64,000 bases of DNA from an uncultured virus (IMG/VR IMGVR_UViG_3300042878_002054) (IMGVR_UViG_3300042878_002054), one strand, 5' to 3'; positions 1,268 to 62,227 are shown, counted from the first letter of the stretch. The notes: generated by a model from the letters alone, not told the origin. Program-made: numbers and translations.

Positions 1268-1338
1268 ACCTTTAGGTTTGTTCAAATATTTATTATTTGA
1301 TTTTTATATATAGAGTATATAAAAATTATAATTATAAC

Positions 1339-3642
1339 ATGGGCATTATACATTCAGGAATAACTCAAAGTTCATTAGTACTAAGAAGTGAAACAGGACA
1401 AAGACTTTCTATTTTACAGTTTGATGGTAACTTCGTATATTTAGAAGACTTAGTATTGGGAGTATCTCAATCTTTAGCAAGTTTACCACTTGTTCCTGCA
1501 GGTGGAACTGGAGGTCAAGTATTGGCAAAAGTTAGTGGAACTGACTACGACTTAGAATGGATAGATCAGACTGGCGGTACTAGTGGTACTGGAACCGGAA
1601 CTGCAGGAACAAGCGGAACATCAGGAACTTCTGGAACATCAGGAACATCAGGAACTTCTGGAACATCAGGAACTTCTGGAACATCAGGAACTTCTGGAGT
1701 TGACGGAACATCAGGAACTTCTGGAGTTGACGGAACATCAGGAACTTCTGGAGTTGACGGAACATCAGGAACTTCTGGAACATCAGGAACATCAGGAACT
1801 TCTGGAACATCAGGAACTTCTGGAACATCAGGAACTTCTGGAGTTGACGGAACATCAGGAACTTCTGGAGTTGACGGAACATCAGGAACTTCTGGAACAT
1901 CCGGTGAAAGAGGTGCAGTAGGTTCTACATTTACAATATTAGGAATATTCCCAGATTATGCAGGACTTACACTAGTTGTAGGTACTATGAGTTCTATAAC
2001 ACCACCAAATAACTTTGATTCTTATATCCTACAAGATACATCACATGTTTGGGTCTATGGACCTACAGCATCTTTAGGTCTTTCACAAAGTGTTGCAAAC
2101 TCTGATGGGTGGATTGATATGGGTGCAATAGAAGGTGCTCAAGGACTTCCAGGTGAAAATGGAACTTCTGGAACTTCTGGAACTTCTGGAGTTGACGGAA
2201 CATCAGGAACTTCTGGAGTTGACGGAACATCAGGAACATCAGGAACTTCTGGAGTTGACGGAACATCAGGAACTTCTGGAGTTGACGGAACATCAGGAAC
2301 ATCAGGAACTTCTGGAGTTGACGGAACATCAGGAACTTCTGGAGTTGACGGAACATCAGGAACTTCTGGAGTTGACGGAACATCAGGAACTTCTGGAACA
2401 TCAGGAACAACCGGAACTTCTGGAACAACCGGAACTTCAGGAACTTCAGGTGTTAGTGGGAGTTTAGATATAATAAATAATATATTTTCTTTATCATCGT
2501 ATGATTTTAACCTTTTAGATCCAAATATATTATTACCAGGAGACTATTTTGTAGACGTAAATAATGATTCTTATGAGATACTACTACCATGGGATATAAA
2601 CTTCTTAGGTACGACATATAGCTCTGTTTGGCTAAACACCAATAGCTATTTGACTTTTGGTGCGAGTAGTTCTGCATCACAATCTATTGCACCTGGTCTT
2701 GTTGTACCGCCTGCGATATTTGTTGGTGCTGGTGATAATAGTCTTCAGGGATATTACTTTGGATTCGACGACGTGGCAGAAGAGATATTCAGAATAAGAT
2801 ACGAAGGTAGTCACGATGAATCTGGTGATTTTCTTTTCAACCCAACTATAGTATGGGAGATGATTTTTAACTTCAACTCACCAAATGATATAAAATTGGT
2901 TCTTGGTTATGGCGAAAAAACAGCTGCACCATTTGGAGTTTGGTCAAATCTTAGAAATCCTGGTGGTGTGTATGGTGTATCTGATGGTACAAACTGGGTA
3001 GAGAGATTTACAGCAGTACCTACATACGACGAAAAGACAAATACAGTGCTAAATACGGTTGATATTTTATCAATAACTTCAGGTGCTAGCTATTCTCAGT
3101 CTACAAATGAAATAAAATTTGTCGGACCAGGTGTTTATAAAGTATCTGAAGGAACTAAAACAACAATAAATATTGATCCATTGAATCAATATGGTTTATC
3201 TTTAAACTATGATATAGGAGATTTTTCAGGACTACCATCTTCTATAATATCTGCGAACAAATATGATTTGAGGCTTACTACAGGTAAAGATGGTAGTGCA
3301 GTTAGATTAAGACCAAGGGGTGATGTTTATTTGCAACCATATAATAGAAATGACAATCAGTATGGACCTGGATATAATGTTAGATTGATTGGATCAAATG
3401 CCTCTCAAGATGCACTTGGTGATGGAGATTACAATGGCGGTTCTATATTTATAACTCCTGGTTTAGGAATAGGTACTGGTGTAAAAGGAAACGTAATAAT
3501 AGGAACAGCAAGCTCTTTTGTAAATATATTTGGAACGATGTCAATCAACTCTGTTTCTGGTTGGTCTGGAACATACTCTATTGGTACTGCATCAGTTGTT
3601 ACGGTGATTTCGGGAATAATAACAGGAGTTACGACTATCTAA
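1339..3642 (+). CDS. Gly-X-Y (GTS/GVD) collagen-like fibre protein with a NIDO-like C-terminal region
   Basis: Two long GTS/GVD triplet tracts; fibre motif [20 protein letters not shown]; segment [22 protein letters not shown] resembles NIDO domains; TTTATATATAG upstream. Confidence 0.7.
1576..1905 (+). repeat. coding tandem repeat of 9-bp units (GGAACATCA / GGAACTTCT / GGAGTTGAC)
   Basis: Directly visible near-perfect repeats. Confidence 0.95.
2161..2460 (+). repeat. second coding 9-bp-unit tandem repeat tract
   Basis: Same units as 1576-1905. Confidence 0.95.
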
Positions 3643-3657
3643 AAGAATATATAGACT

Positions 3658-4620
3658 ATGATAAAAAGATATTTAGAGTTCATAAAAGAAAACCAAGCCG
3701 ATGGATTTGATTCTATCGGTGAATGGGTTGAATCATTGTATCAAGATGAATATGTTAAAAACATAGTAAATAGATATATTGGTGAGATTGGTTCTGATAT
3801 AAGACTTGCAAATGCTATAAATCTTCTCGATGAAAGAACTCAAAAAGAAATAACGCAGCAGATTGAACAATATCAAGAAGTTGGGATTGAAGAAAAAGAA
3901 CCTATCATTGCAGCATCTACTGATATAGAAGCTTTAACCGAATCAGAAATAACAAAAGCAGGTAGAGGAATATTTCATTCTTTCTTAAAAACTTTGACGG
4001 CATTAGGACAAAAAGAAAAGGCTTCTGAAATAGAAAGATGTCCTGAAAACTTCCTTTTATTTTACTTCTATGGTAACTTAGACGCAGGTGTCGTAAAACA
4101 AGTCTTCAGTCGATTCCAATCTTTAGTTCCATACTTGGAGCACATAGACTATGGAAAGAACGAGGTAAGTCTTTATTTTGGTGTTAAATGTGATGGTGAA
4201 CTTGAATACGGAGTATCGTATGATGGAAACTTCACCGCGTTTGGTACCTTCAAACTTAATCAATCGGTCATAAAATGGTTGAACAACATAGAGTCTAAAT
4301 CAGCATTTGCTCTTAAAAAGGAACTTGTAAATCTTTCTTATAATGATATTATTGTATTAGGAAAAGTAAAGTCTGAAATGGCTCAGTACAATCCAGGATA
4401 CCACGAAAGAAAACTTAAACCAGAACTAAAAGATAGAGTGATGAGTTTTGGATATCAAGGAATAGGAAAATGGGACAACGGTAAGTTGGATGAATCAGAA
4501 TTGATGAATCTTAAAAACAACTTTGTAACGTGGCTTCTTTCTAAAAACTGGGGTAGTAAAGTACTTATCAGTGTTAAACCAAACTCTTATTGGTTATATA
4601 TTCACATAAAACTAAAATAG
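3658..4620 (+). CDS. hypothetical late protein, possible internal head protein
   Basis: N-terminus MIKRYLEFIKE; GAATATATAG at 3645-3654. Confidence 0.75.
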   Translation: MIKRYLEFIKENQADGFDSIGEWVESLYQDEYVKNIVNRYIGEIGSDIRLANAINLLDERTQKEITQQIEQYQEVGIEEKEPIIAASTDIEALTESEITKAGRGIFHSFLKTLTALGQKEKASEIERCPENFLLFYFYGNLDAGVVKQVFSRFQSLVPYLEHIDYGKNEVSLYFGVKCDGELEYGVSYDGNFTAFGTFKLNQSVIKWLNNIESKSAFALKKELVNLSYNDIIVLGKVKSEMAQYNPGYHERKLKPELKDRVMSFGYQGIGKWDNGKLDESELMNLKNNFVTWLLSKNWGSKVLISVKPNSYWLYIHIKLK

Positions 4621-4623
4621 AAA

Positions 4624-4917
4624 ATGAAACATCTTAGAAAATATAACGAAAACGCAGGTCTTGATATAGATTTCGCTATAGTAAAAATAAGAGAACATTT
4701 CTCAGAAGAAGAAGTTTCTTCAATGGTTACTAAAGAAATCTCTGAGTGGTCTGATGATGATGAATTCTACTCTAGTAATGGAAACGGAGAAGCTGAAGAA
4801 GTTGTTATTCAAGAAATGATAAACTGGTTCAAAAGAGAGTTTTCTAAACAAATAGAAGAAAGTGATTTCGCTGCGTTAGAAGACGAAATCAAAGCTACTT
4901 ACCAATCATTAAACTAA
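4624..4917 (+). CDS. small acidic hypothetical protein, possible internal head protein
   Basis: N-terminus MKHLRKYNE; 3 bp after the previous stop. Confidence 0.7.
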   Translation: MKHLRKYNENAGLDIDFAIVKIREHFSEEEVSSMVTKEISEWSDDDEFYSSNGNGEAEEVVIQEMINWFKREFSKQIEESDFAALEDEIKATYQSLN

Positions 4918-4954
4918 ACTATACGCTTTTCATATAAAAAGAAAAGCAAAAATC

Positions 4955-5437
4955 ATGAATATACCTTCAAAAGAAGATACTATTAAGAAGTGGGCTCCAA
5001 TTCTTGAAAGGATGGGTATGACCGGATCCAAAGCTGATTGGATGTCGGAATATGCAGAGATGCATTCTACGAATAATCATTGGGGTACGGTTGGAGATTT
5101 GAAAGACTTATCAAATACCGAATCAAATACCACAAACAAAGATTTTCCAACTCTTCTACCAATGGCCAAACAAATATTCGCAAAAACGGTAGGTCTTGAC
5201 ATAGTTCCTGTTATGCCAATCGGTGGTGGAAACTCAGGCCCAGAGATGGAATCGATCCGACAAGACGTGAAGATAGAAAATAGGGACCGAAAGATTGAAT
5301 CAATCGTCGAAGACAAAGAATTTGAAGAGATGAAAGTAGAAGACCACCCAGACTACAAAAAGTCAGTAGGACCCAGAGGAGAACTTTTCTATTTGGATTT
5401 CCAATACGGCGGAACAGAATCAAATACTATATTATGA
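4955..5437 (+). CDS. truncated major-capsid (gp23-like) N-terminal paralog carrying the RxxKI motif
   Basis: KKWAPILE, GLDIVPVMP and GPRGELFYLDFQYG resemble T4 gp23 NKWKPLLE ... FDICGVQPM.SPTGQVFALRAVYG (recalled); only 160 aa. Confidence 0.65.
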   Translation: MNIPSKEDTIKKWAPILERMGMTGSKADWMSEYAEMHSTNNHWGTVGDLKDLSNTESNTTNKDFPTLLPMAKQIFAKTVGLDIVPVMPIGGGNSGPEMESIRQDVKIENRDRKIESIVEDKEFEEMKVEDHPDYKKSVGPRGELFYLDFQYGGTESNTIL

Positions 5438-5664
5438 CAACTATATTCAAAAGTCCAGGTGTCTATACGACCGAGAGAAACTCCGACTATTGGCTTCCAC
5501 CAGAAGTGATGAAAGGTATAAGGCAAAGTGGATTGTCTATGTCCAGAAGAATGAAAATCTCAAAGATATTCAAAGATGAAAGTCTTTATCCAGTAATGAA
5601 GGATGGTCCTATAGGTTCTAATGGCACTCTTGGTACTCCAGGTATTTGTGGAAATCATTCTTAA
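5434..5664 (+). CDS. small protein with a tail-sheath-like N-terminal peptide and the RxxKI motif
   Basis: FKSPGVYTTE resembles the SPGVYxxE sheath N-terminus; RRMKISKIF. Confidence 0.55.
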   Translation: MTTIFKSPGVYTTERNSDYWLPPEVMKGIRQSGLSMSRRMKISKIFKDESLYPVMKDGPIGSNGTLGTPGICGNHS

Positions 5665-5704
5665 AAATATCGGATGGGAGTCATGAAGCGAGAATATATA
5701 CTTC

Positions 5705-6040
5705 ATGATAAACATTTATTTGATTTCTTCAGATGCAAACGGTAAAAAACTATACAAGATAGGAATAACCAAAAGATCCATTCCAGAAAGAATAAAAGAG
5801 TTTAAAACAGGAAACGCAGCAGAGCTGATAATAGTGGATTCTTTTGTTTCGAAATGGGCAAGAAAGATAGAAGCGACTTTTCATAGGTCTTTGAAACCTA
5901 AGAAAATATCAGGAGAATGGTTTGACTTAGATGAAGAAGACATAGCAACTTTTAAAAGTAAATGTCAGGCGATGCACGAGAACTTTGATATAATAGAATC
6001 TAGCAATACCTACTACATAGATAGAGGTGGAAGATTTTAA
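5705..6040 (+). CDS. GIY-YIG-like (T5orf172/MUG113-type) nuclease domain protein
   Basis: IYLI...YKIGIT..RIKEFKTGN...IEATFH...GEWF pattern. Confidence 0.75.
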   Translation: MINIYLISSDANGKKLYKIGITKRSIPERIKEFKTGNAAELIIVDSFVSKWARKIEATFHRSLKPKKISGEWFDLDEEDIATFKSKCQAMHENFDIIESSNTYYIDRGGRF

Positions 6041-6354: not shown

Positions 6355-6573
6355 ATGAAAATTGAAAACTATTATTTAGACCTTAATAAAGTACATAAAC
6401 TAGAAGACCAGCAAGAAAGAGATCAGATACACTCTTATTATAAAGACATGCTTTATTCTATTCAGGATGGTAGAAAAGAGATGGGTATATCTATAATGAA
6501 TACACTTATCAAAAGTGGTTATCTTGTAGATTTTAGAGATGAAAAACTTACCGAGCTTTTAGATGGAAATTAA
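6355..6573 (+). CDS. hypothetical protein with C-terminal RDEKLTELL motif
   Basis: ORF; shared motif. Confidence 0.7.
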   Translation: MKIENYYLDLNKVHKLEDQQERDQIHSYYKDMLYSIQDGRKEMGISIMNTLIKSGYLVDFRDEKLTELLDGN

Positions 6574-8976: not shown

Positions 8977-9231
8977 ATGGCAACACAATGCAATAGTACA
9001 TTAGGAACACTTACATCGGGAGCACCTGGATCATATCTTATGACCGATTCGAGTGGAACTCTTTCATGGTCGTCTAAAAATGACACGATGGTAGAGTTTG
9101 TTGAATTTGCATTAGAGATAATGGGTATCGATTTGAAGTATTCGGAGTTTGAGAAGATGTCTAGTTCTGATAGAAAAGCCATGCTTAGAGATTTGAAGAT
9201 AGATAGTGTATTAAAAGGAAAGGAGATGTAA
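8977..9231 (+). CDS. hypothetical protein with a fibre-like peptide and RDLKIDSVL motif
   Basis: GAPGSYLMTDSSGTLSWS; shared motif. Confidence 0.6.
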   Translation: MATQCNSTLGTLTSGAPGSYLMTDSSGTLSWSSKNDTMVEFVEFALEIMGIDLKYSEFEKMSSSDRKAMLRDLKIDSVLKGKEM

Positions 9232-15683: not shown

Positions 15684-15712
15684 TAACTATATATTAAAAT
15701 TTAATTTGTCCA

Positions 15713-24379: not shown

Positions 24380-24452
24380 TAAATATTACTTATCTTTTGA
24401 GTATATATTAAATCTTCTACGGTTTGTATTATCTTATCAAACATATTTTGAC

Positions 24453-24469: not shown

Positions 24470-25183
24470 ATGGAAAAGAAGAAAATATTAGTTTTTAGCG
24501 GTGCCGGTGTCTCTAAAGAGAGCGGAATCGAGACGTTCCGAGATTCGAAAGATTCACTTTGGAACAACTATAAGATTGAGGATGTTGCAACAACAGACGC
24601 TTGGCGAAGAAATAGACCATTGGTATTAGATTTTTATAATCAAAGACGTGCTCAATTGAAAGATGTTCATCCTAATTTGGCACATCAGATAATCGCAGAT
24701 TTAGAAAAAGACTATGATGTTACATTAGTAACACAAAACGTAGACAACCTACACGAACGTGCTGGTTCTAATAATGTTATTCACTTACATGGTGAACTTA
24801 ACAAATCTCGTTCTACTTTCCCGGGCTCAACAGATTCTTATGATTGTACGGAAGATATAAAGATTGGTGACAAATGTCCACGAGGTTCACAACTTCGTCC
24901 TCATATTGTTTGGTTTGGTGAGAACTTAGATCCTATGAATATAACCACTGCAGAAGTTGCTGCAGGTAAATGTGATATCTGTATAATCGTTGGTACTTCT
25001 ATGCAAGTTTTTCCGGCAAATCAAATTCCATTCTTAACCAAAAAAGATTGTATAATATTTTATGTAGACCCAAGTGAAATGGATTTCTATGTTCCAGAAT
25101 TCAGAAATGATTTCTTTCATCACATAAAAGAACCAGCAACGACAGGAATGCAAACACTTTTAAATATTTTGAAAGATGCTTAG
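24470..25183 (+). CDS. cobB: Sir2/CobB NAD-dependent protein deacylase
   Basis: GAGVSKESGIETFR, TQNVDNLHERAG, HG, RPHIVWFGE, VGTS. Confidence 0.93.
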   Translation: MEKKKILVFSGAGVSKESGIETFRDSKDSLWNNYKIEDVATTDAWRRNRPLVLDFYNQRRAQLKDVHPNLAHQIIADLEKDYDVTLVTQNVDNLHERAGSNNVIHLHGELNKSRSTFPGSTDSYDCTEDIKIGDKCPRGSQLRPHIVWFGENLDPMNITTAEVAAGKCDICIIVGTSMQVFPANQIPFLTKKDCIIFYVDPSEMDFYVPEFRNDFFHHIKEPATTGMQTLLNILKDA

Positions 25184-25511
25184 AATATCTGAATTTCAAA
25201 GCTATAGAGATGGTGGAACCATTTCTATGCACTGTATGATGGCGGTTAGTTGGATGGAAGTACCCTATCTGGAGATGCGAAGAAATAAAGAGATTGAGAT
25301 TTGTTTAGACTTCAGATTAGGAAAAGAACCAAAGTTTTGGTTTGGATATCCAGGAAAAGAAGACTCGGAACTGATTGAAGAACAAAGTATAATAGACTAC
25401 ATAGTAAAAAAGGTAGAAGAATACAAAAAGTATCAAAACCACAAGTTGGATAGTTTTATAAACTACAGAGAGAACCTAAGAGATTGGAAAATTAAAAACA
25501 TTTTGGAATGA
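25176..25511 (+). CDS. hypothetical protein with C-terminal RDWKIKNIL motif
   Basis: ORF; shared motif. Confidence 0.7.
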   Translation: MLRISEFQSYRDGGTISMHCMMAVSWMEVPYLEMRRNKEIEICLDFRLGKEPKFWFGYPGKEDSELIEEQSIIDYIVKKVEEYKKYQNHKLDSFINYRENLRDWKIKNILE

Positions 25512-25962: not shown

Positions 25963-26041
25963 TAGAATGTTTCGTGTCATGCACAGAAGACGATACGCTT
26001 TAGAACGAATCGTAAAAGTGAAGAAGATTTTTAATATATAG
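25865..26041 (+). CDS. 58-aa protein not in the ORF track (MKKDIIVLDH...ERIVKVKKIFNI)
   Basis: Manual translation; ends in the shared RxxK[ILV]xxIF motif. Confidence 0.55.
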   Translation: MKKDIIVLDHLPLLKTSNIVDGERIQKLSQSVDRMFRVMHRRRYALERIVKVKKIFNI

Positions 26042-26044
26042 TCT

Positions 26045-26410
26045 ATGATAATAAAGAAATTCAACGAAGATTTCGACAACTCTTTTCGAATAGAACCAAT
26101 GTCTTTCAAAAACTCCAGAGGTGAGGACAAGATTGTACATCCTTGTGTTATGATCGATTTCATGAAGACTAGCTGGCAACTTAGAGATGCTGTTAGAAAA
26201 GATATGGATAATCTTATGTGGAATCAAGGATTCCAAACATTTCCTCAGTTTGTTGATGTAAACGGAAACAGAATCACAGACAACGCTGGTGTTATAGAGT
26301 TGAGAGATAAATATCCTGGATTCAAATTCGTATTTTTTGTTGAAGAAAAGAATCTATCAAAAGCAAAAGAAATCGCCGAAAAACACGGTGTTGATTTCTA
26401 CCAAAAATAA
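26045..26410 (+). CDS. hypothetical late protein, possible internal head protein
   Basis: N-terminus MIIKKFNE; TTAATATATAG at 26031-26041. Confidence 0.7.
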   Translation: MIIKKFNEDFDNSFRIEPMSFKNSRGEDKIVHPCVMIDFMKTSWQLRDAVRKDMDNLMWNQGFQTFPQFVDVNGNRITDNAGVIELRDKYPGFKFVFFVEEKNLSKAKEIAEKHGVDFYQK

Positions 26411-33949: not shown

Positions 33950-33996
33950 ATCTCTATATATTAATAAACTTATTTCATTTTTTGGATACAATATTT

Positions 33997-36702: not shown

Positions 36703-36732
36703 ATCAAAGATTATTTTTATTATATATTAAAA

Positions 36733-45033: not shown

Positions 45034-45079
45034 TTTAATCTATTGATTTTTTAGTATATATTAAATGTTGCCTTTTTCT

Positions 45080-50927: not shown

Positions 50928-51506
50928 ATGAAACCAATCAATAAAATATTCGAATATCTTAAAGAATCGAATCTTACTATGATTGGCTATAAGTACCAGG
51001 ATGAACGGATAAAAGACGAACTCATTTCAAAATTACCTCACATAGAGATTTTTGAATTTGATTCGTCTTTTTCTGTTATGTCTGCCTTAAAGCGAACAAT
51101 AAGAGATAAAAAGATTGGCTCTGTGTTGGATGGTGAAGAATTTTCAAATACAAACTTTTTAGTAGTCGATTTGGGAAATTTCAGCATGTCAAAATCAGAA
51201 TCTGCATTTGAAAGGAGTAGACACATATCTGAATTTGTCGGACAAATGAGAAAAGAGGTGTTGGAAACCAAATATAGTTTGATTATACTCTCACCAGTAA
51301 ACTCAACAATGGGATCTGCCTTAGGTAATGATATACCATCTTTCAGTGGAGGAAATAGAAGCATTTACATGGCAGACATGGCTTATGTGATAGAAGGAAG
51401 AAAAATAAAGATAATAAAGAACAGATTCGATGGTGATAATATAACAATATCGCTTGATAATCTAAAAGATTATAAGTACATTTGTAGCTATGAAAATAAC
51501 AAGTAA
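50928..51506 (+). CDS. degenerate RecA/DnaB-fold fragment without Walker A, carrying RDKKIGSVL
   Basis: FLVVD, IILSPVN, SGG.RSIYMAD, IIKNRFDG; no GxxxxGK[ST]. Confidence 0.55.
   Translation: MKPINKIFEYLKESNLTMIGYKYQDERIKDELISKLPHIEIFEFDSSFSVMSALKRTIRDKKIGSVLDGEEFSNTNFLVVDLGNFSMSKSESAFERSRHISEFVGQMRKEVLETKYSLIILSPVNSTMGSALGNDIPSFSGGNRSIYMADMAYVIEGRKIKIIKNRFDGDNITISLDNLKDYKYICSYENNK
51453..51484 (+). promoter_or_regulatory. Bacteroidota sigmaA-type promoter CTTG-N20-TACATTTG
   Basis: 5 nt before the smpB ATG. Confidence 0.55.
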
Positions 51507-55570: not shown

Positions 55571-55644
55571 TTAAAAAAACTTTATTTTTTCACTTTCCAA
55601 AACAAGTTATGTTGTATATATTAAATATTTTTATACATAAAAAG

Positions 55645-62147: not shown

Positions 62148-62227
62148 ATTATTAAAATTTTTATTTTAAATTAACTATGGTATATATTAAATTTTCAACT
62201 CAGAAAATAAAGAATATTGTTATATGC

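Follow-up and report, generated by a model that had tools for sequence, protein, structure and literature searches.

The MCP paralogs known to us, such as T4 gp24, are all full HK97 proteins. In phage T4, the N-terminal regions of gp23, the major capsid protein (MCP), lie inside the prohead and after its expansion become N-arms that bind neighbouring subunits, as described in PMC9958956. According to PMC3014915, a 29-residue region of gp23, the Gol region, binds domains II/III of EF-Tu, the first ~100 residues of gp23 do so more stably, and conservation within gp23 is highest in the Gol region.

Here, we analysed a window of 64,000 nt from an uncultured virus (IMG/VR IMGVR_UViG_3300042878_002054). 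At 4955..5437 (+), it carries an ORF of 160 aa plus stop that starts with MNIPSKED and encodes exactly the protein quoted in a preliminary description of this DNA. This protein, hereafter the mini-MCP, had been taken there for a truncated gp23-type MCP paralog with a tag inside a conserved MCP motif and with most of the HK97 fold missing, and comparisons by BLASTP, hhalign, Pfam and PHROG support that view. When searched by tblastn against 50,697 phage records, the protein matched the MCPs of four huge phages with E-values of 3e-7 to 4e-7. BLASTP against a two-sequence database aligned it to the MCPs of LR745206 and LR756501 at 33% identity (E 2e-17 and 2e-13, respectively), and both MCPs match Pfam Gp23 PF07068 (E 1.7e-26 and 1.7e-25). 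Furthermore, hhalign comparison of the mini-MCP family (64 sequences) with the MCP family (23 sequences) gave a probability of 99.8% and an E-value of 2e-28 over 97 aligned columns. With this probability and the BLASTP E-value of 2e-17, the kinship to the gp23 family that the preliminary description had proposed is confirmed.

Profile searches placed individual members of the family at varying distances from known models. The window protein itself had no Pfam match at E≤1, Pfam Gp23 was matched by 19 of the 64 family members at E≤1 (best 3.9e-4), and matches to PHROG 138, the 'major head protein' group, were obtained at E≤0.01 for 14 of the 64, the best having an E-value of 3.7e-6. PF07068 was also found on 58% of the members in one of the three nearest ESM-Atlas clusters. 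On sequence grounds, the mini-MCP is homologous to part of the Gp23 family, the family model itself being unmatched. T4 gp23 (NC_000866) starts with MTIKTKAELLNKWKPLLEGEGL and has FDICGVQPMNSPTGQVFALRAVYG at residues 109-132; both the start and the conserved segment had been correctly given in the note that preceded this work.

The hhalign alignment pairs mini-MCP residues 3-40 (4961..5074, +) with MCP 5-44, a copy of the N-terminal, propeptide-like MCP helices that includes KKWAPILE and WMSEYAEMHS. Residues 62-90 (5138..5224, +; FPTLLPMAKQIFAKTVGLDIVPVMPIG) pair with MCP 84-111 and copy the MCP N-arm helix and first strand, and residues 139-158 (5369..5428, +) pair with MCP 112-131 and copy the strand GPKIDLLYIDFRYDD, which reads GPRGELFYLDFQYGG here. 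Residues 91-138 have no MCP counterpart, and the alignment places this insertion between ...VKPSP and GPKIDLLYIDFRYDD, which are neighbours in the MCP. The protein stops 22 residues past the insert, so that the A and P domains are absent, and the alignment covers MCP 5-44 and 84-131 only, with no HK97-type body (A/P domains, E-loop with insertion domain). The mini-MCP is unable to build an HK97 shell. AF2 predicted helices at residues 6-19 and 28-38 of the mini-MCP, both at low confidence, and a model of the MCP, likewise of low confidence, shows the corresponding helices at 8-21 and 28-39. This MCP model, built from a shallow alignment, has a mean pLDDT of 43 and is unusable for placing the direction of the insert.

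No MCP was found in the window, where only 4937-5281 matched the LR756501 MCP (E 5.6e-11) and the other four hits had E≥4. All MCP comparisons given here use relatives, the phage's own MCP lying outside the window. The mini-MCP also lacks ~40 residues that are found in the MCP between the N-terminal helices and the arm. This segment holds GMGAV..AQP..LAG..GSGD, which is common to the MCP and two other LR745206 ORFs and may have a processing or targeting role. In its fuller form (GMGAV..AQP..LAG.T...GSGD), it lies at about residues 52-86 of the LR745206 MCP and in the ORFs at 93266-93520 and 555317-554787, and one of these two small ORFs also begins with the N-terminal motif described below.

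The nearest public relatives of the mini-MCP are encoded by LR745206 (634,780 bp; 59% identity over residues 1-154, with an ortholog of 157 aa) and LR756502 (642,428 bp; 50% identity), and four other records of 460-735 kb match it only via their true MCPs (~32% identity). A word-indexed search retrieved 363 clusters at 90% identity (E≤0.01); among the 120 matches listed of these, lengths range from 142 to 160 aa and all proteins are unnamed. An exhaustive search retrieved 297 representatives at 50% identity (E≤0.001), 127 of them at E≤1e-10, and only 2 exceed 190 aa among the 150 matches listed of the 297. The mini-MCP founds a large family of small proteins in uncultured phages of >600 kb. 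One full copy was found by the family HMM in the window and one in LR745206. dN/dS ranged from 0.10 to 0.23 by the Nei-Gojobori method over the 10 unsaturated pairs formed by the window and five related metagenome loci (L119-L123), a range that leaves out the pairs with LR745206, which are saturated at synonymous sites. The mini-MCP gene is a real, working gene under purifying selection, present in a single copy per genome. That it is a decaying, functionless remnant of a partial MCP duplication, as might be proposed for a fragment of a larger gene, is barely credible, being contradicted by these dN/dS values, by the conserved length and by the hundreds of diverged family members.

Comparison of the window with the phage collection revealed no near-identical DNA, and a scan of IMG/VR returned 78 loci that were essentially true MCPs or weak partial matches, with no close mini-MCP among them. 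Parts of 4955-5437 were covered at 90-99% likeness by short contigs from 3 of 4 metatranscriptome libraries; contigs of RNA libraries can derive from DNA and cannot give starts, ends or levels, hence we make no claim on the expression or timing of the gene. T-[QE]-S motifs specific to the mini-MCP family flank its core on both sides, as NTESNT before FPTLLP and GTESNT after YGG (window 5117-5131 and 5414-5428), and many of the members P0121-P0270 start with MTQS. 'MTQS' was rejected as a general N-terminal tag, as the mini-MCP alone starts so in LR745206.

The insert (residues 91-138; 5225..5368, +) is 48 aa long, with 23 of the 48 residues charged and a helix predicted at 95-119. AF2 is confident only here, with pLDDT values of 82-92 over residues 91-140 compared to 41-66 over the MCP-like parts. 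Within the insert, RDRKIESIV (residues 110-118; 5282..5308, +) matches the proteome-wide tag RD-x-K-[IL]-x-x-[IL] at an internal position and lies in a longer conserved context, ENRDRKIxSI..KEFEEMK.EDHPDY. The tag is not C-terminal in the mini-MCP, where 43 residues follow the 8-residue motif core. Among the 150 matches listed of the 297 representatives, regular-expression searches assigned 83 to an arrangement with the insert behind the DLVxVxP strand and 16 to one with the insert ahead of it, and left 51 as incomplete or unclassified; in those 16, ...V.P...LFYLDF.YG is unbroken, as in the MCP. As far as these patterns tell, the family conserves the arm together with the tag helix and no single topology. 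A search among proteins of 281-2000 aa for forms with insert and strand fused into them gave no match at E≤0.001, which is weak evidence, and P0251 (366 aa, without Pfam domain) is the only candidate for such a fused form.

Conservation within the arm and the tag also bears on the possibility that the arm is a dominant-negative cap directed at competitors, which would disrupt the capsids of relatives or satellites in the same cell, the tag being incidental. The arm is indeed close to a nearly invariant MCP sequence, with 17 of 22 positions identical in a count on two consensus lines. However, no residues of the family are more conserved than those of the tag (over 64 members, N109 and R110 never vary, and conservation of K113 and I114 is 90% or higher), hence the tag is not incidental, and the closest target of such a cap would be the phage's own MCP. 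We therefore regard a cap as very improbable.

The shared tag noticed in the preliminary description is real, as RD.K[ILV]..[ILV] also occurs in four other window ORFs. It is C-terminal in three of them, at 6355-6573 (FRDEKLTELLDGN), 8977-9231 (LRDLKIDSVLKGKEM) and 25176-25511 (LRDWKIKNILE), and internal in the fourth, at 50928-51506 (IRDKKIGSVLDGEEF). In LR745206, the motif occurs 87 times in the six-frame translation, and 83 of these matches are in ORFs of at least 50 aa, compared to 3.2 ± 1.5 after shuffling. Furthermore, 65 of these 83 matches lie within 10 residues of the stop (shuffled, 0.22), and a looser tag pattern is C-terminal in 90 of 1,207 ORFs. Synonymous codons of the tag vary freely, indicating that the constraint acts on the protein. 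Only 4 of 110 tagged LR745206 ORFs had a Pfam match at E≤1e-4; the full set is 112, from which 2 that cross a locus boundary were left out. No paper on the C-terminal tag of huge phages was found in the literature.

The full mini-MCP was found in all three tag-bearing sequences, namely the window (5 C-terminal tags), LR745206 (90) and LR756502 (44 in the first 400 kb, the part scanned), and in none of the three tag-free records, namely LR756500 (0 tags in the whole record), LR756501 (0 in the first 320 kb of 735 scanned) and LR756504 (1 at 200-600 kb of 636 scanned), the last two being part-scanned for tags. LR756504 also contains, at 415901-416098, a 65-aa ORF with a copy of the N-arm (LFPIAQRIQSKIIGIELVSVQPL) and a tag-like YDRKSKIDRIF, in a stretch without the C-terminal tag network.

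Beyond the mini-MCP, some tagged ORFs copy pieces of large proteins of the same phage. Seven of 112 tagged LR745206 ORFs resemble a same-genome ORF of at least 250 aa at E<0.01. Three have the MCP as their counterpart: the mini-MCP, a 243-aa ORF (207176-207907) that corresponds to MCP 344-530 plus a C-terminal tag, and a 137-aa ORF (598978-599391) that joins a C-terminal tag to SRIDGYPIF, a snippet of the MCP insertion domain. One with an internal tag (195382-194897) resembles the 707-aa protease/scaffold ORF located directly upstream of the MCP gene, the LR756501 counterpart of which has a sub-threshold Peptidase_S77 match (22.9 bits vs a cut-off of 27). Another with a C-terminal tag (296085-296384) resembles the UVR motif of a 701-aa ClpC/ClpB-like double AAA+ ATPase, and two resemble a 319-aa ORF of no assigned function. 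A ClpC/ClpB-like double AAA+ ATPase of ~700 aa and two or three ClpP homologs are encoded, besides a gp21-type head protease, in LR745206, LR756502 and LR756504; in LR745206, the Clp ATPase and ClpP homologs are at 423224-425329, 123568-124089 and 75197-75721. Clp as reader of the tag was demoted to a lead, since ATPase and ClpP are both encoded in the tag-free LR756504 as well, and the ATPase also in LR756501.

For the mini-MCP, we tentatively favour a mode of action, to which we give slightly less than an even chance, in which its arm docks, within the assembling head, on a partner that the MCP N-terminus also binds, and its tag helix docks on the tag reader. The protein is bipartite, consisting of a diverged copy of the first ~130 MCP residues, comprising two propeptide-like helices, the N-arm helix and two strands that in the MCP lead into the E-loop/insertion domain, and of a 48-residue charged helix with the tag, spliced between the two strands. 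The MCP-like arm would be disordered alone and fold on its partner, as suggested by the low AF2 confidence expected for such segments, and would mimic the MCP N-terminus by occupying the surface that normally receives it. That surface would most likely belong to the scaffold core or to a neighbouring MCP subunit in the assembling head. With its tag helix bound to the tag reader, the mini-MCP would connect the tag network with the building of the head, acting as a loader or adaptor or else as a removable brake. A mimic with a docking handle accounts best for a fragment that cannot fold alone, keeps the MCP contact segment and joins it to a docking helix in variable topology. Structure prediction of a complex of MCP and mini-MCP returned a score of 0.00, which is no answer and neither supports nor contradicts this arrangement. 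The 65-aa arm-and-tag-like ORF of LR756504, found without the network, suggests that an arm mimic may also act without it.

Another short sequence recurs across the proteome, at the N-terminus. In LR745206, 89 of 1,207 ORFs (loci L008-L039) start with M-[KR]-[YHF]-[LI] and continue with K-x-[FY]-x-E/F-E, and in the window this N-terminal motif occurs at 4624-4917 (+) and 33949-33482 (-). T4 IPII and IPIII start with MKTYQEFIAEA. By analogy, the motif appears to be a capsid-targeting sequence of the T4 type, employed on a very large scale. The 89 ORFs with the N-terminal motif and the 90 ORFs with the C-terminal tag have no member in common in LR745206. Pairing of the two kinds of genes as neighbours was rejected, as they lie within 1 kb of each other in 17% of cases vs 26% for random genes.

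These sequences speak to another proposal, that the MCP-type N-terminal helices of the mini-MCP are a head-targeting signal and that the protein is packaged as internal head protein and ejected into the next host. T4 internal proteins enter the scaffolding core through short N-terminal signals, as reported in PMC3012670 and PMC9958956, and ORFs of LR756501 (196 aa) and LR756500 (172 aa) match only positions 1-65 of the mini-MCP model, as a portable module would. However, the mini-MCP starts without MK[YH][LI]K.[FY], the candidate targeting signal (MK[YH]L...) of the phage itself, and thus lacks the mark of cargo bearing a T4-type capsid-targeting sequence, in which an N-terminal targeting peptide precedes a protease site, and some representatives without the N-terminal helices keep arm, tag and strand, some of which may be cut gene calls. 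Packaging as cargo is consequently quite improbable.

The mini-MCP gene belongs to a conserved gene run. The run is headed by a 320-aa ORFan (3658..4620, +) that has no Pfam or PHROG match and a 63% identical ortholog in LR745206, with synteny kept. It is followed by the conserved upstream neighbour of the mini-MCP gene, a 97-aa acidic protein gene with the N-terminal motif (4624..4917, +; start MKHLRKYNEN), which adjoins the mini-MCP gene in L120, L121, L122, L001 and L124 and the 3' end of which is also present in L119. Downstream, a 76-aa ORF (5434..5664, +) overlaps the mini-MCP stop (ATGA) and is conserved in close relatives only; its interpretation as a tail-sheath fragment was rejected, as it has no similarity to any large LR745206 ORF. 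A 111-aa T5orf172/MUG113 (GIY-YIG-like) protein is encoded next (5705-6040, +), and since this gene is syntenic in all relatives, it is not a recent mobile insertion. The order in LR745206 is 320 aa, 96 aa, mini-MCP, 84 aa, T5orf172 and 90 aa, and closer metagenome relatives keep the run. At 1297-3642 (+), the window also has a 781-aa ORF in which long collagen-like repeats (GTSGTSGVD) are combined with a C-terminal part that is globular.

A recurrent promoter-like motif, (T)AATATATA or TAATATATA, has 13 exact copies in the window vs 2.27 expected, a number reached in 0 of 100 shuffles. AATATATA ends 4-6 nt or 16-29 nt ahead of start codons, and the frequent ending of TAATATATA 4-5 nt before an ATG suggests leaderless or near-leaderless transcripts. 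Copies of TAATATATA are located at 15688-15696, 24402-24410, 26032-26040, 33955-33963 and 36721-36729, among others, with further copies at 45055-45063, 55615-55623 and 62181-62189, and the motif precedes giant window ORFs of 1780, 2888, 1082 and 2155 aa. A simple sigma-70 scan was uninformative (13 sites vs 15.5 expected).

There is no AATATATA directly upstream of the mini-MCP gene. A one-mismatch copy, GAATATATA (3645..3653, +), ends 4 nt before the 320-aa gene, with the same spacing as at the genes at 26045, 15683 and 5705, and is a possible promoter of the unit that contains the mini-MCP gene. GAATATATA recurs at 5692..5700 (+), 4 nt before the T5orf172 gene, and marks the start of the next unit. 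A TATAAA (4933..4938, +), 16 nt before the mini-MCP ATG, is a putative -10-like element conserved at 6 of 6 close loci; the surrounding TTTTCATATAAAAAGAAAAG is kept in the window and in L119-L123, even in L123, which has a different upstream context. The preliminary description had proposed an AAACTA-N16-TATAAA promoter at this place, in lieu of the late motif, and had taken it to suggest a non-structural role. The promoter could not be upheld: AAACTA-N14-18-TATAAA has 1 match in the window vs 0.31 expected, at least one match arises in 26 of 100 shuffles, and the upstream gene has its stop codon within AAACTAA. Since the mini-MCP run follows the GAATATATA copy of the recurrent motif, the inference from 'not late' to 'non-structural' has no support. 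A role outside the shell was nevertheless rightly proposed, since the HK97 fold is missing.

Distribution of the motif in LR745206 links it to structural genes. Exact copies of AATATATA stand before the gene of the portal-like protein (Pfam Portal_T4) and before that of the protease/scaffold, the one-mismatch variant TTATATATA is found at the MCP gene, and the mini-MCP run follows a 385-aa gene that carries the AATATATA motif. AATATATA is found within 30 nt upstream of 168 of the 1,207 ORFs that reach 50 aa, 31 of the 102 that reach 400 aa, 40 of 89 genes with the N-terminal motif and 1 of 90 genes with the C-terminal tag.

We favour the head as the place where the arm would dock because the tagged snippets are biased to head proteins, because the full mini-MCP co-occurs with the tag network and because its gene sits among N-terminal-motif genes behind a structural-gene motif. 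Other observations point away from the head. In LR745206, the mini-MCP gene lies ~90 kb from the head module, the MCP gene being at 200,752-202,434. The near absence of AATATATA from C-terminal-tag genes makes the tag network look like another expression class than the head genes, and this sits badly with a simple reading of the tag as a head address. Should incorporation into the head or processing require the GMGAV..GSGD segment, the mini-MCP would be treated differently from a head protein.

The arm might serve outside the head altogether. As a decoy or antagonist, the mini-MCP would mimic with its arm the MCP region bound by a host factor or by an abortive-infection sensor, as for T4 Gol, EF-Tu and Lit, and would occupy the host factor or hand it to the tag reader. 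In T4, binding of Gol to EF-Tu activates the Lit protease, which then cleaves EF-Tu. The mini-MCP HMM and T4 gp23 align collinearly but weakly (residues 4-118, 10 bits), and the MCP-arm residues 62-90 of the family, with its universal core LLPIAMKVAAQTIGxDLVSVxP..., align weakly with gp23 90-118. The Gol peptide presumably spans about gp23 residues 93-122. Conservation and EF-Tu binding of the Gol region (PMC3014915) and the suggestion in PMC9712102 that MCPs may commonly trigger defence systems lend weight to such a decoy. So do the scarcity of Pfam matches among the tagged proteins, which are ORFans typical of host-takeover genes, and the existence of a tagged snippet of another large phage machine, the Clp ATPase UVR motif. 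However, a Gol-like peptide would be expected to trigger the sensor, not to block it, the T4 alignment is far below significance in a real database, and the context of the gene, behind the AATATATA motif and beside N-terminal-motif genes, is left unexplained. We consider a decoy, the strongest of the rival readings, somewhat unlikely.

A broader version of the arm mimic with a docking handle would make the mini-MCP a physical link between a proteome-wide tag system and the capsid, as one of several 'tagged snippets' sharing one handle. Each snippet would reproduce a contact element taken from one of the phage's large machines (the MCP three times, the protease/scaffold and the Clp ATPase), and through the handle the phage could load, hold or remove all snippets together, for example by its own Clp protease, which would amount to a global assembly switch. 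We regard this extension as unlikely. Whatever probability the readings set out here do not take up falls to something that we have not thought of.

Titles and abstracts retrieved by full-text searches describe no N-terminal MCP-fragment paralog, although supplements of huge-phage papers could hold annotations of the family; nor do they describe an adaptor built from a capsid-protein fragment or, from 2022 onward, a capsid-protein decoy gene. In the mini-MCP family, which is conserved and under selection, only the N-terminal arm of the MCP is retained, fused to a portable docking helix. It offers a handle on the reader of a tag borne by up to ~90 small proteins per huge-phage genome and on the binding partners, other than adjacent shell subunits, of the most conserved part of gp23-type proteins. 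Should the arm prove an assembly mimic, it would be a natural probe of how very large T4-type heads are built, and should it prove a decoy, it would represent a new kind of counter-defence against capsid sensing.

Compared to T4 gp23 and gp24 (PF07068), the mini-MCP shows homology in the N-terminal helices, in the N-arm and in the first strands and, like gp24, is a paralog kept beside the MCP. Unlike both proteins, it represents ~110 of ~560 MCP residues, without A, P and insertion domains, and it bears a 48-aa insert seen in none of the MCPs aligned. Like the T4 Gol peptide (PMC3014915), it may be a short piece of the same N-terminal gp23-type region acting outside the capsid. Gol, in contrast, is a region of gp23 and has no separate gene, and the two regions are matched by a weak alignment and by approximate coordinates. 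Like T4 IPII and IPIII, which bear capsid-targeting sequences, and the small core proteins gp67 and gp68, the mini-MCP would be a small protein that a short portable peptide attaches to the prohead (PMC3012670 and PMC9958956); a six-sequence search detected no similarity to gp67 and gp68 (E 0.3-0.4). Unlike IPII and IPIII, it has no N-terminal targeting motif, a look-alike of which is found on 89 LR745206 ORFs. Like the C-terminal tag family of huge phages, it carries RD-x-K-[IL]-x-x-[IL], the tag being, unlike in that family, internal and fused to the MCP arm. SspB or MecA adaptors dock on Clp ATPases via a short terminal peptide, and encapsulins use cargo-loading peptides. On the Clp side, LR745206 and LR756502 encode both Clp ATPase and ClpP, yet so does the tag-free LR756504. 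By analogy, the mini-MCP would follow the logic of SspB and MecA, with a client-binding body joined to a short hub-binding helix.
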